64,000 nt of DNA, from the NCBI GenBank assembly GCA_965225815.1, contig CBDDBP010000007.1:221621-285620 (forward strand). Direction: 5' to 3'. The notes beneath the pieces were generated by a model. That model was not told the origin of the DNA and did no database searches. It saw only the letters and a program-made list of their open reading frames with translations. The DNA is from Dehalococcoidia bacterium (lineage in GTDB: Bacteria; Chloroflexota; Dehalococcoidia; DSTF01; WHTK01). Both the position numbers and the translations under genes were made by a program. Below are positions 2,717 through 36,543 of this stretch, in pieces (position 1 is the stretch's first letter; every line of letters begins with the position of its first letter).

Positions 2717-3540
2717 TGGGGCGTTATGGGAAGCGCGCCACGCTGGTCCTGCTGTTAACCATTGCGGGTGTCCTCGTGGCCTGTGGCGGCGGCGACAGCC
2801 GGACAGCTGAGTCGAGCGGGCCAACCGGGAAGATCACGGTTTTCGCGGCGGCATCACTCACGGAGGCTTTCAAAGAGATCGCTACAAAGTTCGAAGCGAC
2901 GTTCCAGGGTACGAAGGTCGATTTCAACTTCGCAGGAACGCCGACGCTGCGGACGCAGCTGGAGCAGGGGGCGCGGGCTGACGTATTCGCCAGCGCCAAC
3001 CGGGAGCAGATGGCTCTGGCGCAGGCTTCCGGTGTTGTGGAACCGTCGAGCCGCACCTTCGCAAGAAACTCGCTGGTGATCATTACGCCGGTGGAGAACC
3101 GGGCGAGTGTGGAATCGGTCGAAGACCTTGGGCGCGACGGGCTGAAGCTGGTATTGGCGCTGGAAGCGGTGCCGGTAGGCGCCTACACGCATCAGGCTTT
3201 GACGGCTATGTCGGTCGAGGCTGGTTACGGGCAGGGCTTCGGCGAAGCGGTGATGAGCCACGTGGTTTCGTTGGAGAGCAACGTCAAGCAGGTCGTGGCG
3301 AAGGTCGAGCTTGGCGAGGCGGATGCAGGGATCGTCTACGGGACCGACGTTACGCAGGAGCTCGCATCAAAATTGACGAGGATTGAGATTCCTGACGGAT
3401 TCAATGTGATTGCCGAGTATCCGGCGGCGCTGGTGACTGACCGTCGCAACGACGTGGTGGCTCGTCTCTTTATTGACTTCTTGCTGACAGAGCCGGCGCA
3501 GGCGATCCTGGCCCGCCACGGCTTCTCGGGAGTGGGCTAA
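2716..3540 (+). CDS. modA: molybdate ABC transporter substrate-binding protein ModA
   Basis: Lipoprotein-type signal (LVACGG), then ITVFAAASLTEAFKEIA...ADVFASAN, typical of ModA. The start ATG overlaps the padR stop. Confidence 0.75.
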   Translation: MGRYGKRATLVLLLTIAGVLVACGGGDSRTAESSGPTGKITVFAAASLTEAFKEIATKFEATFQGTKVDFNFAGTPTLRTQLEQGARADVFASANREQMALAQASGVVEPSSRTFARNSLVIITPVENRASVESVEDLGRDGLKLVLALEAVPVGAYTHQALTAMSVEAGYGQGFGEAVMSHVVSLESNVKQVVAKVELGEADAGIVYGTDVTQELASKLTRIEIPDGFNVIAEYPAALVTDRRNDVVARLFIDFLLTEPAQAILARHGFSGVG

Positions 3541-23781: not shown

Positions 23782-25626
23782 CTACTCGACGGTGACGACT
23801 TTGGCGAGGTTGCGCGGCTGGTCGACATCGCAGCCTTTGAGCCGAGCCAGGTGATACGCGAAAAGCTGCAAAGGGATGGCCGTCACCAGCGGCTGTAGCA
23901 GCGGTGGCGCGTTGGGAACGTAAACAACGTCGCGAACGCGGTCGCGAATCGATTCATTGCCTTCCGTGGCGATGGCAATGACGATGCCGTCGCGGGCTCG
24001 GACTTCCTCGATGTTGTTGAGCATCTTGACGTAGTGCTCATCCCGCACGGCGATGGCGACGACCGGCATCTTGGCGTCGATCAGCGAGATCGGACCGTGT
24101 TTCATCTCGCCGGCGGGGTAGCCTTCGGCGTGAATGTAGGAAACCTCTTTGAGCTTAAGGGCTCCCTCCATTGCGCTGGTGTACTGGATGCCGCGGCCAA
24201 GGAAGAGGACGTTACGGGCGCGTCGATAGCGCCGGGCGAGTTTTTCAACCGCGGGCTCGGTCTTCAGCGCTTCGCCGATGATCTGGGGCGCCCGGGCAAG
24301 GTCGCTGAGGGCGGCGAGGAGATGGTCGCCGCCGAGGAAGCCGCGCTTGTGGCCGATGTAGCAGGCCAGTAGATAGAGCGCGGTCAGCGAGCCGAGATAG
24401 GTCTTGGTGGAAGCGACAGCGACTTCAGGCCCGCATTGCATGTAGACGATGCCATGGGCCAGCCGCGTGGCCTGAGAGCCCGGCGTGTTGCAGACCGTGA
24501 CGACGTGAGCGCCACGGCGCTTCGCTTCGAGCATCGCACCCAGGGTGTCGACGGATTCTCCCGACTGGCCGACGGAGACGACGAGGGTGCGCTTATCGAG
24601 CACGGGGCGGCGGTAGCGGTACTCGGAGGCGTTGTCGGCCTCGGCGGGTAAGCCGGCGAGCTGTTCGACATAGATTCGACCGACCTGGGCGGCGTGGAAG
24701 CTCGTCCCCATCCCGATGAGGACGACCCGGTCGAGGTCTGAGATCTCACGGTCACTGAGATTGAGGTCTGCGAGGTGGACGGCGGGCGGTTCGAGCTGGG
24801 CGGCATCGCGTAGCGTGTCGAGCACGGCCTCTGGCTGCTCCGCGATCTCCTTCGCCATGTAGTGGTCGTAGAGGCCTTTGCCGGCGACGTATGAGCCGAC
24901 GGGCAGCGTCTGTGGCTCTTTTTGAATCGGCTGGCCGTTGAAATCGGAATACCTTGCGCCGCTGCTGGTGACGCAGGCCATCTCGCCGTCCTCGAGAAAG
25001 ACGACGCTCTGGCTTCGATCTGCGATGGCGGGGAGGTCGCTAGCAACGAGCATCTCGTCCTTGCCGTAGCCGATAACGACGCCGCCGGCGTTGGCGACCC
25101 GCGCCGCGACAATGACGCCGGGTTCCTGCTGGTGGATCGTGAGGACGGCCGCTGCACCTTCGATCCGGCTCAGGGCCGCCGCGGTGGCGCCCGCGAGGTC
25201 GAGGCCGTTCTTGATTCCGGATTCGATGAGATGAGGAATGACCTCCGTGTCGGTCTGGGAGCGGAATTCACAGCCCTTCGATTCGAGCTCGAGTCGCAGC
25301 TCGCGGTGGTTTTCGACGATGCCGTTGTGGATGACGGCGATCTCGTTACTGCAATCGAGGTGAGGATGGGCGTTGAGTTGCGAAGCGCGGCCGTGGGTGG
25401 CCCAACGCGTGTGGCCGATCCCCGTGCCCGTGCCTTTGAGTGAGGCAGGGATCTTGTTGCGCAGGTTGACCAGCTTGCCAGCGTCCTTGGCGGTGGCCAG
25501 GGCGCCGTGGCTATCGATCACGGCGATGCCGGCGCTGTCGTAGCCGCGATATTCGAGCTGAGACAGGCCGTCGAGGACAACGGGGACGGCCTCGTCAGGG
25601 CCGACGTAGCCAACGATGCCACACAT
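23782..25626 (-). CDS. glmS: glutamine--fructose-6-phosphate aminotransferase GlmS
   Basis: N-terminal MCGIVGYVG (Ntn Cys), two SIS domains, and the C-terminal ...VTVE. 614 aa. Confidence 0.9.
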   Translation of the reverse strand: MCGIVGYVGPDEAVPVVLDGLSQLEYRGYDSAGIAVIDSHGALATAKDAGKLVNLRNKIPASLKGTGTGIGHTRWATHGRASQLNAHPHLDCSNEIAVIHNGIVENHRELRLELESKGCEFRSQTDTEVIPHLIESGIKNGLDLAGATAAALSRIEGAAAVLTIHQQEPGVIVAARVANAGGVVIGYGKDEMLVASDLPAIADRSQSVVFLEDGEMACVTSSGARYSDFNGQPIQKEPQTLPVGSYVAGKGLYDHYMAKEIAEQPEAVLDTLRDAAQLEPPAVHLADLNLSDREISDLDRVVLIGMGTSFHAAQVGRIYVEQLAGLPAEADNASEYRYRRPVLDKRTLVVSVGQSGESVDTLGAMLEAKRRGAHVVTVCNTPGSQATRLAHGIVYMQCGPEVAVASTKTYLGSLTALYLLACYIGHKRGFLGGDHLLAALSDLARAPQIIGEALKTEPAVEKLARRYRRARNVLFLGRGIQYTSAMEGALKLKEVSYIHAEGYPAGEMKHGPISLIDAKMPVVAIAVRDEHYVKMLNNIEEVRARDGIVIAIATEGNESIRDRVRDVVYVPNAPPLLQPLVTAIPLQLFAYHLARLKGCDVDQPRNLAKVVTVE

Positions 25627-25754
25627 GCGGGCCTCCGGTGCGGCGCGAGACGCGTCTTTGCGTACCTACGAATCGTAGGCAGCACGACACGCCGCGGCGA
25701 CCGCGACTATGAGGAGGAACGGAGGACTGTCTGGGGAATCGCGAAGTCTTCGCG

Positions 25755-25960
25755 ATGCACGTCGGCGCAGTTTTGTCGGGAGCTTGCGCATCCCGGTTTG
25801 TCTGCGACGTTACGACTGTGCCAGCCGAGAGGCCACCCGCCGAGTTTTTCGAAGAGCCTCTTCCTCGTCATCCGATTGGCTTTGAAAGCCCGGGGACACC
25901 CCGGACCCCGCTAAAGGGGGTTACAAAGCTGGCAAATCTTCAATCGGACCTGGCGCTTTC
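25755..25960 (-). ncRNA. glmS_ribozyme: glmS ribozyme (glucosamine-6-phosphate-activated self-cleaving ribozyme) in the glmS 5' UTR
   Basis: The minus strand reads A|GCGCCAGG..., then ...UGACGAGGAAGAGGCUCUUCGAAAAACUCGGCGGGUGGCCUCUCGGCUG...GUAACG...CAAACCGGGAUGCGCAAGCUCCCGACAAAAC. The GACGAGG-AGG-UUCGAA-UCGGCGG-UG-CCUC-CGGCUG core and the CAAACC...GACAAA P4 region match the conserved glmS ribozyme pattern. It ends about 130 nt upstream of the glmS ATG. Confidence 0.7.
25879..25929. repeat. copy of the ~45-nt dispersed element (gctttgaaagcccggggacaccccggaccccgctaaagggggttacaaagc) embedded between the ribozyme's 5' AGCGCC and the GACGAGG core
   Basis: About 80% identical to the element at 7539-7579 and 7639-7680. 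In the minus-strand transcript it can fold as GCUUUG...CAAAGC closing two GC hairpins. Confidence 0.5.
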
Positions 25961-26148
25961 AGAACGACAGTCCCTGGGTCAACCTCCCTATCGAGTTGCT
26001 GGAAGTGAATATAGCACGGGTCGAACAGACCGGTAGTCAGGTGGTTCAGGGACAGGGCGGAGGGCGCCAAAGCGCTGGATGCCGAAGGGAGGGGTATATA
26101 CGCAGCTCGAGGAAGCGTCGGGAGGCGCGGCCAGCGCGTTTGAAGACG

Positions 26149-33451: not shown

Positions 33452-33841
33452 ATGCACGTCGCCAGCAGCAATACGCCGGACTTCCAGGTTCGCACGGGAA
33501 CGCCGATGTTCATCGGCGAGGTCCACGCTCACGGCCTGATCGACGACAAGATGACGGAGCAAACGCGAATGCTCCTGGTGAAGTTCAGCCCTGGTGGGCG
33601 AACGCGTTGGCACACACACAGCTTCGAGCAGGGATTGGTGATCACTGAGGGTCGTGGCATTGTAGCCAGCGAGTCTGAAGGCGAGCGCGTCGTTGAGGCA
33701 GGCGACGTCGTTGTCTTCGACACGGGTGAGAAGCACTGGCACGGCGCGACAAACACGACGGGGATGAGCCACATCGCGATCAACCTCGCGGGCTCGGCCG
33801 AGATCCTTGAGGACTCGGAGATCAAGACTGCGGGGTTGTAG
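33452..33841 (+). CDS. cupin-domain protein
   Basis: GGRTRWHTHSFEQGLVITEG ... GDVVVFDTGEKHWHG two-motif cupin signature. Confidence 0.55.
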   Translation: MHVASSNTPDFQVRTGTPMFIGEVHAHGLIDDKMTEQTRMLLVKFSPGGRTRWHTHSFEQGLVITEGRGIVASESEGERVVEAGDVVVFDTGEKHWHGATNTTGMSHIAINLAGSAEILEDSEIKTAGL

Positions 33842-33850
33842 ATAACAGCC

Positions 33851-34216
33851 GTGGCGGCAGATGAGGCGCGACAGGCGAGCGAGGGCGCCCCGGCGCGACT
33901 CTTCGCCGGCTCCAGCTTTGGCTACGCGTTTGTGGTTGCGGTCCTGGTGCTGGTGGTCAAGGACTTCTTTCGCAATGAGCCGGACCAGGACGCAATGTTG
34001 CTGTGGCTGTTGGTGCCGCTGATTGCCTCCTTCGGAGGCTGGATGTCGGTCATGTCAGGCCAGCCCCTGCTGCGAGGTTGGCTCTGGTTCGGCATCGTCG
34101 CGATTTTGTTTTGCTGCTGGATCGCGGTGTTTTCTTACGGACTGCTGTTCTTGCCGGTAGCGCTGCTGATGATGGTTGCGGCGGTCAGCCCATGGGATAA
34201 GCGGGTAGGCTCCTAG
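33851..34216 (+). CDS. hypothetical membrane protein (121 aa)
   Basis: Four predicted TM helices. No homology recognised. Confidence 0.3.
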   Translation: MAADEARQASEGAPARLFAGSSFGYAFVVAVLVLVVKDFFRNEPDQDAMLLWLLVPLIASFGGWMSVMSGQPLLRGWLWFGIVAILFCCWIAVFSYGLLFLPVALLMMVAAVSPWDKRVGS

Positions 34217-34220
34217 CTCC

Positions 34221-34250
34221 TTGTCCTGACGCCAGCGCCGCACCTATACT
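34221..34250 (+). promoter_or_regulatory. candidate sigma-70-type promoter (TTGTCC - 18 nt - TATACT) for the riboswitch-btuFCD transcript
   Basis: Hexamers read directly from the sequence. Spacing is 18 nt. Predicted TSS is about 34257. Confidence 0.3.
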
Positions 34251-34257
34251 GCCGTCA

Positions 34258-34478
34258 CGTCATGGGTGTCCCTCTTGCAAGCGAGGGAGTAAATGCGAAG
34301 CCGGTCAAAAATCCGGCGCTGTCCCGCAACTGTAGCCCCGAAAACGATTCGGGGGAGCCAGGCCGCCAGCCCGTGACGATGTCTCTGGAAGCCTCCGTGG
34401 AGGGGCCGAGACATCGTCTGAGCCAAGGCATAAGACGATTCGCCCCCGGCCCCATAGAGGCCGGGGTTTTGTTTTGCG
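34258..34478 (+). ncRNA. cobalamin (AdoCbl) riboswitch with intrinsic-terminator expression platform
   Basis: GCGAGGGAG...GCGAAGCCGGUCAAAAAUCCGGCGCUGUCCCGCAACUGUAGCC...GGGGGAGCCAGGCCGCCAGC contains the conserved cobalamin-riboswitch blocks (GGUxAAAAUCC, GCUGxCCCGCAACUGUA, AGCCAGG B12-box region). It is followed by the hairpin CCCCGGCC-CCAUAGA-GGCCGGGG plus UUUUGUUUU at 34444-34476. It lies upstream of a BtuF-like binding-protein gene. Confidence 0.7.
34444..34476 (+). terminator. intrinsic terminator (8-bp GC stem + TTTTGTTTT) forming the riboswitch OFF-state
   Basis: Read directly from the sequence. Confidence 0.65.
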
Positions 34479-34534
34479 CACCGGCGCGGGAACTTCCAGA
34501 GTCGATGGGTCGCCTCGAGTGGAAGGAGACTGCC

Positions 34535-35470
34535 GTGCGTTTTCGTTTTCTCGCTGTTTTGGTGCCATCGCTACTGTGGCTGGTGGCGGCGTGTTCGAAC
34601 GATTCGGAACCAGAGCCGACGGTTGCGTCGCAATCGACTCAAGCCGCTCCGGCGGCGACTTCTGAGGCGAACGAGCCCAGATCATTCACCGGCAGCGACG
34701 GGGTAACGGTTGTTCTGGACGAGGCACCGCAGCGCATCGTTTCGCTGGCAACACACGCGACTGAGATCTTTTGTGCTCTCGGCGTAGGGGAGCGTCTGGT
34801 GGCGGTCGACCGGTACGCTAATTGCTCGGACGGAGGAGGCGAAAAGCCGGAGGTCGACTCTTTCCAACCCAGCGTCGAAGCGATCGTCGCCTATGACCCG
34901 GACTTCGTTTACGCCTGGTATGACCCGGGCGACCTGGCGCGATCATTGCGCGACGTGGGCATCACCGTATTCCTGCTCGACACGCCCGTGGACCTTGAAG
35001 GGCTTTTCGACAACATCCGTCTGATTGGCGAAATGACGGATCGAGAAGACGGAGCCGAGGCGCTTGTGGCGGAGTTGGAGGCGGACCGCGACGCCGTCGT
35101 AGCGAGCATCGCTGACATTGAGACGGGGCCACGGATCTATCACGAATCCGACGCGGCGTTGTACACGGCGCGCAGCGACACGTTCGTCGGCGAACTCTAC
35201 GTTCTGCTTAAGGCGCAAAACATCGCTGACGGGGCCGACAGCCAGTATCCGCAGCTCTCCTCCGAGGCCGTGGTTGCATCCGACCCGGAGGTGATCATCC
35301 TGGCGGACTTCGCCGACCCGGCAGAGGTGGCGGCACGGCCGGGATGGGCTGCGATCAGCGCAGTGCTGAACGATCAGATTTGCGAGATTAATCCCGATCT
35401 GACCGACCGGCCGGGGCCGAACATCATGCAGGGCCTGCGGGCGCTGCGCGATTGCCTTTACCCGGACTGA
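34535..35470 (+). CDS. ABC transporter periplasmic substrate-binding protein, BtuF/FecB (TroA-like cluster) family; probable cobalamin/corrinoid binding
   Basis: GTG start preceded by the AAGGAG SD. Lipoprotein signal (LLWLVAACSND). ...RIVSLATHATEIFCALG...AYDPD... is typical of class III SBPs. The cobalamin riboswitch lies upstream. Confidence 0.7.
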   Translation: MRFRFLAVLVPSLLWLVAACSNDSEPEPTVASQSTQAAPAATSEANEPRSFTGSDGVTVVLDEAPQRIVSLATHATEIFCALGVGERLVAVDRYANCSDGGGEKPEVDSFQPSVEAIVAYDPDFVYAWYDPGDLARSLRDVGITVFLLDTPVDLEGLFDNIRLIGEMTDREDGAEALVAELEADRDAVVASIADIETGPRIYHESDAALYTARSDTFVGELYVLLKAQNIADGADSQYPQLSSEAVVASDPEVIILADFADPAEVAARPGWAAISAVLNDQICEINPDLTDRPGPNIMQGLRALRDCLYPD

Positions 35471-36543
35471 TGGCTGAAGCGATTCAGGCGAGCGGGGCCA
35501 CAGGGACGAATCAAAGTCTCGCGGAACGGCTGCGCCCGGCGACGCCTGCAATTGCATTCGCGGTGTTGCTGTGTTGCTTGCTGGCCGGGATCCTGATCGG
35601 GCCGGCCGGCATCAGTCCGGGCGATACGGCTCGGGTTGTCCTGAATCACGTGGCCGGCGCGAGCTTTGATGTCCCAGGTCAGACTGACGCGATCATCTGG
35701 GAGATCAGGCTGCCACGCGTGCTGCTAGCCGCGGTGGTAGGGGGATCCCTCGCGTACAGCGGTGCTGCCTACCAGGGTGTTTTCCGAAACCCGTTGGCCG
35801 ATCCGTATCTGCTCGGGGTCGCGGCCGGGGCGGGATTGGCGGGCGCGATTGCGATCGTGCTTGACGCGCCGTTGACTCACGCCGGGCTCAGCCTGCTGCC
35901 GCTGGTTTCGTTCGGCGGCGCGATGATCGCGGTACTGCTGGCCTACAACATCGCTCAGGCCGGCGGGCAGACGCCCAACACGACGCTGATCCTCGCCGGC
36001 GTGACGCTATCGTCCATATCGGTAGCGGCGATCTCCTACATCCTGATCACCGATCAGCAGAATTCGACGGCAGTCCTGTCCTGGTTGCTCGGATCGTTCA
36101 ACGGCAGCGGCTGGCGCGATCTGCCCTACGTGCTGCCTTACGCAATTCCGGCCGGCATCGTGGTCTTCCTGCACGGACGTATGCTCGACGTGTTGCAGCT
36201 GGAGGAGAGCGAGGCTTCTTACGTCGGCCTGGACGTGCGGCGGACGAAAGCGATCATCTTGCTGGCGGCGTCCCTGGCGGCCGCAGCGGCGGTTTCGGTA
36301 GTGGGCATCATCGGCTTCGTTGGTCTGGTGTCGCCGCACGTCGTGCGGTTGCTGCTGGGGCCGGATTATCGGCGATTGTTACCTGTGGTGGTGCTGGTGG
36401 GGGCGAGCTTCCTGGTGCTGGCAGACATCGGCGCTCGCTCGCTGGTCAGCCCCGGCGAGCTCCCGGTCAGCATCCTGACGTCATTCGTGGGCGCGCCGTT
36501 CTTCCTCTTCCTGCTGCGGCATCAGCGCAAGGTGTACTTCTGA
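35470..36543 (+). CDS. FecCD-family ABC permease (BtuC-like)
   Basis: About 10 TM helices with the FecCD pattern. ATG overlaps the upstream stop (ATGA). Confidence 0.75.
   Translation: MAEAIQASGATGTNQSLAERLRPATPAIAFAVLLCCLLAGILIGPAGISPGDTARVVLNHVAGASFDVPGQTDAIIWEIRLPRVLLAAVVGGSLAYSGAAYQGVFRNPLADPYLLGVAAGAGLAGAIAIVLDAPLTHAGLSLLPLVSFGGAMIAVLLAYNIAQAGGQTPNTTLILAGVTLSSISVAAISYILITDQQNSTAVLSWLLGSFNGSGWRDLPYVLPYAIPAGIVVFLHGRMLDVLQLEESEASYVGLDVRRTKAIILLAASLAAAAAVSVVGIIGFVGLVSPHVVRLLLGPDYRRLLPVVVLVGASFLVLADIGARSLVSPGELPVSILTSFVGAPFFLFLLRHQRKVYF

Follow-up and report, generated by a model that had tools for sequence, protein, structure and literature searches.

The window, by which we mean the whole stretch of 64,000 nucleotides (nt) analyzed here, comes from a Dehalococcoidia bacterium (NCBI GenBank assembly GCA_965225815.1, contig CBDDBP010000007.1, positions 221,621 to 285,620 of the forward strand) and carries a cobalamin riboswitch in the leader of a three-gene operon for a BtuFCD-like importer. 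On the strength of a covariance-model match and a conserved core, the element is a genuine cobalamin riboswitch, and we consider it likely, at a probability of about 0.8, that it shuts off the importer operon by early termination of transcription when a corrinoid is bound, through a route that would run from a kissing loop by way of the P13 hairpin to an antiterminator. The parts of the leader and of the operon are listed in Table 1; positions are those of the window, and some are shortened to their last digits.

An earlier note on this DNA, made from the letters alone, had proposed the riboswitch and suggested a scan with the corresponding Rfam model. When the whole window was scanned, two matches scored above the gathering score, and one of them was RF00174 (Cobalamin) at 34247-34388 (+), with 60.6 bits against a gathering score of 31.5, E = 1.5e-12 and a full-length alignment (model positions 1-189), so that the proposal withstood the covariance-model test. 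The three conserved aptamer blocks named in the note are present, as GGTCAAAAATCC (34303-34314), GCTGTCCCGCAACTGTA (34318-34334) and GAGCCAGG (34355-34362). The conserved core, which consists of the P3-P6 junction, the L5 loop UCCCG and the B12-box region, is likewise in place: GCUGU-CCCGCAACUGUA and GAGCCAGG align to the consensus with high posterior probability, and the core blocks are invariant among relatives. A different assignment, in which the P4 hairpin (loop UCAAAAAU) served as P5/L5 with a partner in the U tract (CAAAA : UUUUG), was dropped, as the Rfam structure line places L5 elsewhere.

Among cobalamin riboswitches, a P2 arm is a feature of class I and a short P6 extension a feature of class II (PMC7367189), and the aptamer in the window combines the two. 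The large P7-P11 extension of P6 that defines class I (Cbl-I) is missing, 11 nt replacing 61 model positions, and a simple hairpin of some 20 nt (34336-55) closes off P6; a P2 hairpin exists between P1 and P3, where class II (Cbl-IIa/IIb) has none. By these features, the aptamer is of a hybrid, yvrC-like architecture with a P2 arm and a short P6 hairpin. The aptamer, the terminator platform and the operon of the arrangement that the note called classical were all found; the aptamer, with its short P6, is not a classical class I element. By its described architecture, the 'atypical' hybrid yvrC riboswitch of Bacillus subtilis is alike in its P2 loop-stem-loop arm, its small P6 hairpin and its L5-L13 kissing loop, the last of which is proposed here, and the yvrC RNA binds adenosyl-, methyl- and hydroxocobalamin in vitro (PMC7367189).

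The earlier note had named a terminator-type platform but offered no mechanism of switching. The expression platform downstream of the aptamer suggests how the switch may work. Transcription from the promoter at 34221-34250 would start the leader RNA, whose first ~120 nt would fold as the cobalamin-binding aptamer. With a corrinoid bound, L5 would kiss L13 (CG-U-GGA) with U98 bulged, and the kissing loop would lock P13 together with its lower stem. Hairpin 2 and the GC-rich terminator with its U tract would then form, RNA polymerase would stop at about 34470-34476, and the importer genes would remain untranscribed. Without ligand, P13 would be free to open, and its 3' half GGGGCCG could pair with CGGCCCC in the 5' arm of the terminator, with hairpin 2 as a cap; the released 5' half of P13 could cover the 3' arm of the terminator, and the polymerase would read through into the genes for the binding protein, the permease and the ATPase. 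In the folds of nascent transcripts, the minimum-free-energy structure at a transcript end of 34458 contains the antiterminator helix, at -84.3 kcal/mol compared with -78.4 kcal/mol for the P13 structure, and the antiterminator fold also pairs the liberated 5' half of P13 with the 3' arm of the terminator. Once this arm has been made, P13 plus terminator reaches -93.6 kcal/mol and the antiterminator state -89.6 kcal/mol. The two states thus differ by about 4 kcal/mol and are therefore closely balanced, as a switch needs. These modeled folds support a switch that would be ON by default and OFF with ligand, and the ligand together with the kissing loop could plausibly tip the balance between the two states.

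The terminator itself was found by a consensus scan as CCCCGGCC-CCATAGA-GGCCGGGG followed by TTTTGTTTTG at 34444-34476, in agreement with the 8-bp GC hairpin and U tract described before; its stem consists of 8 G-C pairs with a folding energy of -17.3 kcal/mol. Conservation was assessed with homologues of the binding protein, which come mostly from Dehalococcoidia/Chloroflexota metagenome-assembled genomes. The first 38 related genome loci were scanned for the riboswitch, 33 of those related leaders for terminators, and loop sequences were compared in 40 leaders. In 35 of the 38 loci, the orthologous binding-protein gene is directly preceded by a match to the cobalamin clan (RF00174, or RF01482 in three cases), and at least two of the other 3 loci are cut off at a contig end. 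Of the 33 leaders, 29 have a terminator-like hairpin and U tract downstream of the aptamer, with stems that differ between groups (CCCCGGCC/GGCCGGGG, CCCUUGCC/GGCAAGGG and CCCCUGCC/GGCAGGGG). Because the position and the U tract are kept despite the differing stems, the terminator-type platform is a conserved trait and not a chance hairpin.

All four helices of the switch are conserved. In 12 close relatives, the helices of the bound state are 89.5% paired, and in four of their pairs both partners have changed; 0 of 500 shuffles had that many. The P13 stems are paired in 95-98% of cells, with double changes in both stems, and the terminator stem is 98% paired. The antiterminator helix is 95% paired, compared with 35-47% when its partner is slid. 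Hairpin 2, which we propose as a structured spacer capping the antiterminator in the folding model, has its CGUC/GACG core and its distal GC pairs conserved. For the kissing loop, five pairs can form between L5 and L13 with one bulge (G26-C96, C25-G97, C24-G99, C23-G400 and U22-A401, with U98 bulged). L5 reads UCCCG in 37 of the 40 leaders, and L13 reads CG-N-GG(G)A in related leaders, in which essentially N alone, the proposed bulge, varies. Leaders are named below by their locus labels where they need to be told apart. L023 (at about 3078-3180) is the sole leader with L5 UCGCG, and its L13 is CGCGGA; the two loops can pair as four contiguous base pairs (CGCG : CGCG) that use the otherwise bulged C. 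This pair of loop sequences may be taken as a single natural hint for the kissing loop.

The switch logic proposed here has been established genetically, by compensatory mutagenesis, for the metE riboswitch of Priestia megaterium, a transcriptional repressing switch in which L5 UCCCG kisses L13, the kissing loop stabilizes P13 and a structured region caps the antiterminator (PMC10327014). The parts of a metE-type platform, namely antiterminator, hairpin 2 and terminator, are all found in the window. The two systems differ in several ways: L13 is CG-N-GGA here, with a proposed single-nucleotide bulge, and CGGGA in metE; P13 has a long lower stem here that touches P1; the 3' arm of the terminator is here a near-repeat of the P13 3' half, so that the P13 5' half can cover the terminator too; a possible anti-Shine-Dalgarno layer is added here; and the controlled gene is an importer instead of metE, in a Dehalococcoidia-like member of the Chloroflexota. 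The anatomy fits the route through kissing loop, P13 and antiterminator rather than a simple design in which P1 competes with an antiterminator.

Several observations weigh against this reading. Hairpin 1, the extended P13 hairpin, can be lengthened in the window by the pairs 34375-80 : 34413-18, which overlap P1 and hairpin 2 and form with the upper part a perfect 11-bp helix that could keep P13 stable even without ligand. The thermodynamic fold of the full leader always includes the terminator, and read-through must therefore be kinetic. The bases of the kissing loop are near-invariant, and covariation is therefore uninformative on it. The antiterminator shows one double change only, with a covariation score not above that of shuffles, and alignment through the expression platform is limited to close relatives, so that the support consists mostly of conserved pairing potential and G-U-compatible changes. 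Finally, none of the three importer proteins reaches the NCBIfam equivalog cut-off for BtuF, BtuC or BtuD.

The perfect 11-bp helix is also the starting point of another explanation, which we regard as unlikely, in which the ligand stabilizes P1 and, without ligand, the 3' strand of P1 (34375-78) joins the lower stem of hairpin 1 (34375-85 : 34408-18), a step that would keep hairpin 2 from forming and determine what becomes of the terminator, with no kissing loop required. The helix shares 4 nt with P1 and 6 nt with hairpin 2, and the full hairpin 1 folds at -24.9 kcal/mol. However, the terminator still forms together with the full hairpin 1, so that the exchange yields no antitermination, and the near-invariant L13 and L5 are left unexplained. 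We give P1 competition little weight because the six lower pairs of hairpin 1 (34375-80 : 34413-18) carry uncompensated mismatches in relatives, as for G78-C15, which is unpaired in 4 of 12. Two other pairings were tried and rejected: hairpin 2 as an anti-antiterminator chained to P1 results in termination in both states, and the B12 box (GCCAGG), if paired as an antiterminator with the 5' arm of the terminator, meets, by eye, a central A-C mismatch in the window and in most close relatives.

It is very unlikely that the hairpin and U tract are not a working terminator at all and represent a structural element, the switch being Rho-assisted or purely translational instead. An interrupted U tract (UUUUGUUUU) and, downstream, a structured spacer of 59 nt with a hairpin sequestering the Shine-Dalgarno sequence would suit this explanation, but the strength of the G-C stem and the persistence of position and U tract in the related leaders, though the stem sequences differ, argue against it. 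Least probable of all, in our view, is an activating riboswitch like that of Alkalihalobacillus halodurans cobT, in which P13 acts as the antiterminator when ligand is bound. Corrinoid ON switches do exist (PMC10327014), but P13 does not overlap the terminator in the window; only the 3' half of an open P13 can pair with the 5' arm of the terminator, so that closure of P13 frees the terminator, and an importer induced by its own substrate is physiologically unlikely.

With regard to the genes under control, TGATG overlaps of stop and start codons, at 35468-72 and 36541-45, join the three genes into one operon, as had been noticed before, and the GTG start expected about 60 nt downstream of the terminator was located at a distance of 59 nt from the U tract and 6 nt from AAGGAG. 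A long open reading frame (ORF), 34262-35470, overlaps the aptamer, and a public protein 99% identical to the binding protein has 321 amino acids (aa), so that its start would fall at ATG 34505, within the leader. Relatives conserve AAGGAG-N6-GTG but not this ATG, and the public protein probably begins 10 codons too early. The binding protein has a lipoprotein signal (...LVAAC) whose Cys20 is at least 90% conserved. A copy of it with 99% identity is encoded on a 2.19-Mb contig (ENA ERZ28669063), and homologous permeases of 357 aa occur in relatives.

The domain set of BtuFCD (Peripla_BP_2, FecCD and ABC ATPase) is complete in one operon, and judged by these domains the designation "BtuFCD-like" is correct at the family level. 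The scores of the proteins are well below the equivalog cut-offs (BtuF, 64.8 bits against 234; BtuC, 283.9 against 461 for the archaeal type and 207 against 334; BtuD, 125 against 281). The NCBIfam models that fit best, archaeal-type BtuC and a corrinoid ATPase, also stay below their cut-offs, and the nearest solved binding proteins in the Protein Data Bank (PDB) include binders of iron, of haem and of B12. The earlier note had called the operon a btuFCD-like importer with a likely corrinoid substrate, and only the first part can be upheld from the proteins, which lack an equivalog-level match and so do not pin the substrate. A corrinoid substrate is suggested by the conserved riboswitch and not by the proteins, because these fall below the cut-offs and their PDB matches are mixed. 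The importer resembles BtuFCD of Escherichia coli in its three domains, and BtuF structures are among the PDB matches; it differs in that the scores are far below the equivalog cut-offs, the binding protein is a lipoprotein, and iron or haem binders score similarly or better. The B12 riboswitch of E. coli sits on btuB and acts on translation. Cobalamin riboswitches upstream of btuF-type transporters are already well documented, and the arrangement in the window is a textbook one.

Upstream of the riboswitch, the promoter proposed earlier (TTGTCC/TATACT) is the sole promoter-like site in a consensus scan, and 0.1 such sites are expected in shuffles of that region. Transcription would start at about 34256-58, at the 5' end of P1. 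The distance from the -10 box (CTATACT / ATATAAT) to P1 is nearly constant in close relatives, within a few nt, and a -35 box TTGTCN is seen in those relatives whose included sequence reaches upstream.

The leader might also control translation, which would extend the termination model by a second tier; we regard this as possible but somewhat doubtful. With P13 closed, CUUCCAGAG would sequester the Shine-Dalgarno region (UGGAAG), whereas with P13 opened by the antiterminator the freed 5' half, CUCUGGAAG, would capture CUUCCAGAG and release the ribosome-binding site, so that, if this is true, transcripts escaping termination would still be repressed by B12. CUUCCAGAG and CUCUGGAAG are perfect reverse complements over 9 bp, and all 11 close relatives keep a complementarity of 8-15 nt to the P13 5' half, in a spacer that varies elsewhere. 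The 9 core pairs are each formed by 10 or more of the 11 sequences, L062 having the one double change, from A-U to G-C, and the helix between the element and the Shine-Dalgarno region is 89% paired. When P1 and the antiterminator alone are enforced, the minimum-free-energy fold gains the long-range helix, at 3.7 kcal/mol above the OFF state. Furthermore, hairpins that sequester the Shine-Dalgarno sequence downstream of the terminator are found in many orthologous leaders, and in L006, L013 and L020 the downstream element is complementary instead to the P13 5' strand plus L13.

On the other hand, 7.5% of shuffles reach a 9-bp match in the window alone, covariation is not above that of shuffles (145 of 500), and the pairing with the Shine-Dalgarno region alone explains part of the conservation of the element. 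The Shine-Dalgarno sequence is only partly covered, GGAG staying free, and a scan against shuffles found no significant contiguous complementarity in more distant leaders. The long-range pairing was scored by such scans for contiguous complementarity, since RNAduplex on long segments gave interrupted, uninformative duplexes. Tentatively, then, an extended P13 under the control of the kissing loop may drive two consecutive decisions by its two halves, one aptamer gating transcription and then translation, in a manner conserved in this Dehalococcoidia lineage. The 3' half would be the antiterminator, and the 5' half, equally tentatively, would cover the 3' arm of the terminator and then serve as an anti-anti-Shine-Dalgarno strand against CUUCCAGAG.

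Other structures were observed around the ribosome-binding site. Directly after the U tract, a GC hairpin, GCGCACCGGCGC (34476-34487), can pair with the start-codon region, GCCGUGCG (34532-34539), in the OFF-state fold, which could be a further occlusion of the start codon. In L015, L016 and L017 (about +105 to +136 after the aptamer), and similarly in L009, L014, L019 and L036, a second strong hairpin with a U tract sits between the first terminator and the Shine-Dalgarno sequence, and the GGGGGAC of its 3' arm complements the local anti-Shine-Dalgarno GUCCCUC. From their sequences, these second hairpins look like tandem terminators chained to Shine-Dalgarno sequestration. In L009, L014-L019, L021, L023, L025, L028-L030 and L037, the P13 3' half and antiterminator strand reads GAGGAAAGGC-AUG-GG; in these distant leaders GAGGAAAGGC-AUG is a Shine-Dalgarno-like run followed by an AUG at good spacing, and in L018 that AUG is in frame with the binding-protein gene with no stop between. 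The AUG could be the start of an upstream ORF or an alternative start. In the window, a search for such an upstream ORF found no start codon in the P13 3' region.

Table 1. Parts of the riboswitch leader and genes of the importer operon (window positions).
Feature	Position	Strand	Basis or remark
Sigma-70-type promoter: -35 TTGTCC 34221-26, 18-nt spacer, -10 TATACT 34245-50	34221..34250	+	consensus scan
Cobalamin aptamer	34258..34378	+	RF00174 structure line; same fold in nascent-transcript minimum-free-energy structures
P1	34258-67 : 34369-78	+	Rfam structure line
P2 arm, 6-bp hairpin UCCCUC...GAGGGA	34269-88	+	Rfam structure line
P3 start	34294-96	+	
P4 hairpin	34300-17	+	Rfam structure line
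P5/L5	34320-28	+	
L5 loop UCCCG, aptamer side of proposed kissing loop	34322..34326	+	matches L5 consensus of PMC10327014
P6 with short distal hairpin, including B12-box-like AGCCAGG	34329-62	+	
Extended P13 hairpin	34381..34412	+	hairpin GCCUY-CGNGGA-RRGGC after P1 in related leaders
P13 proper, GCCUC / GGGGC	34391-95 : 34402-06		
L13, CGUGGA	34396-401		
Lower stem of P13	34381-85 : 34408-12		
Antiterminator 5' strand GGGGCCG (P13 3' half and two more nt)	34402..34408	+	pairs with 34447-53
Antiterminator 3' strand CGGCCCC (part of terminator 5' arm)	34447-53	+	
Hairpin 2: 34413-19 : 34433-39, distal pairs 34422-23 : 34428-29	34413..34439	+	nascent folds
Intrinsic terminator: stem CCCCGGCC (34444-51) / GGCCGGGG (34459-66), U tract UUUUGUUUU (34467-75)	34444..34475	+	consensus scan
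Downstream element CUUCCAGAG	34493..34501	+	can pair with Shine-Dalgarno region UGGAAG (34520-25) or CUCUGGAAG (34383-91, extended P13 5' half)
Shine-Dalgarno AAGGAG (34523-28) and start codon GTG (34535-37)	34523..34537	+	both conserved in relatives
Substrate-binding lipoprotein, 311 aa, Peripla_BP_2	34535..35470	+	lipobox VAAC with Cys20
FecCD-family permease, 357 aa counted from ATG 35470	35470..36543	+	
ABC ATPase (ABC_tran), 264 aa	36543..37337	+	

Two genes lie ahead of the leader, one for a Cupin_2 protein (33452-33841) and the other for a protein of 121 aa (33851-34216), and the pair stops 5 nt short of the -35 box. The 121-aa protein has no match in Pfam or NCBIfam, and the gene pair also precedes the riboswitch in several close relatives, a conserved synteny. 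In three related loci, a c-di-AMP (ydaO) riboswitch precedes the cobalamin riboswitch by about 1.2-1.5 kb and lies on the opposite strand (L023, 1703-1834; L030, 2046-2198; L036, 2298-2433; all on the minus strand), and the window has no ydaO match. The other Rfam match in the window is a glmS ribozyme (RF00234) at 25753-25968 (-), with 79 bits against a gathering score of 37 and a P1 loop of 58 nt compared with 6 in the model; it lies just upstream of a 614-aa ORF (23782-25626, -) whose GATase and two SIS domains identify it as glmS.

These results leave the current understanding of riboswitches unchanged, and their main value lies in the annotation of the transporter and in the corrinoid-scavenging lifestyle of the lineage, the possible dual control being secondary. 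The leader is a candidate for combined transcriptional and translational control, and it may provide a natural second example of a logic of kissing loop, P13 and antiterminator that has so far been dissected in a riboswitch of the Bacillus group. The riboswitch gives a likely corrinoid substrate and a B12-repressed regulation to an importer that cannot be separated from iron and haem transporters by protein similarity. Furthermore, the association of the two across dozens of related metagenome-assembled genomes points to corrinoid scavenging as a conserved trait of an uncultured Dehalococcoidia-like lineage.

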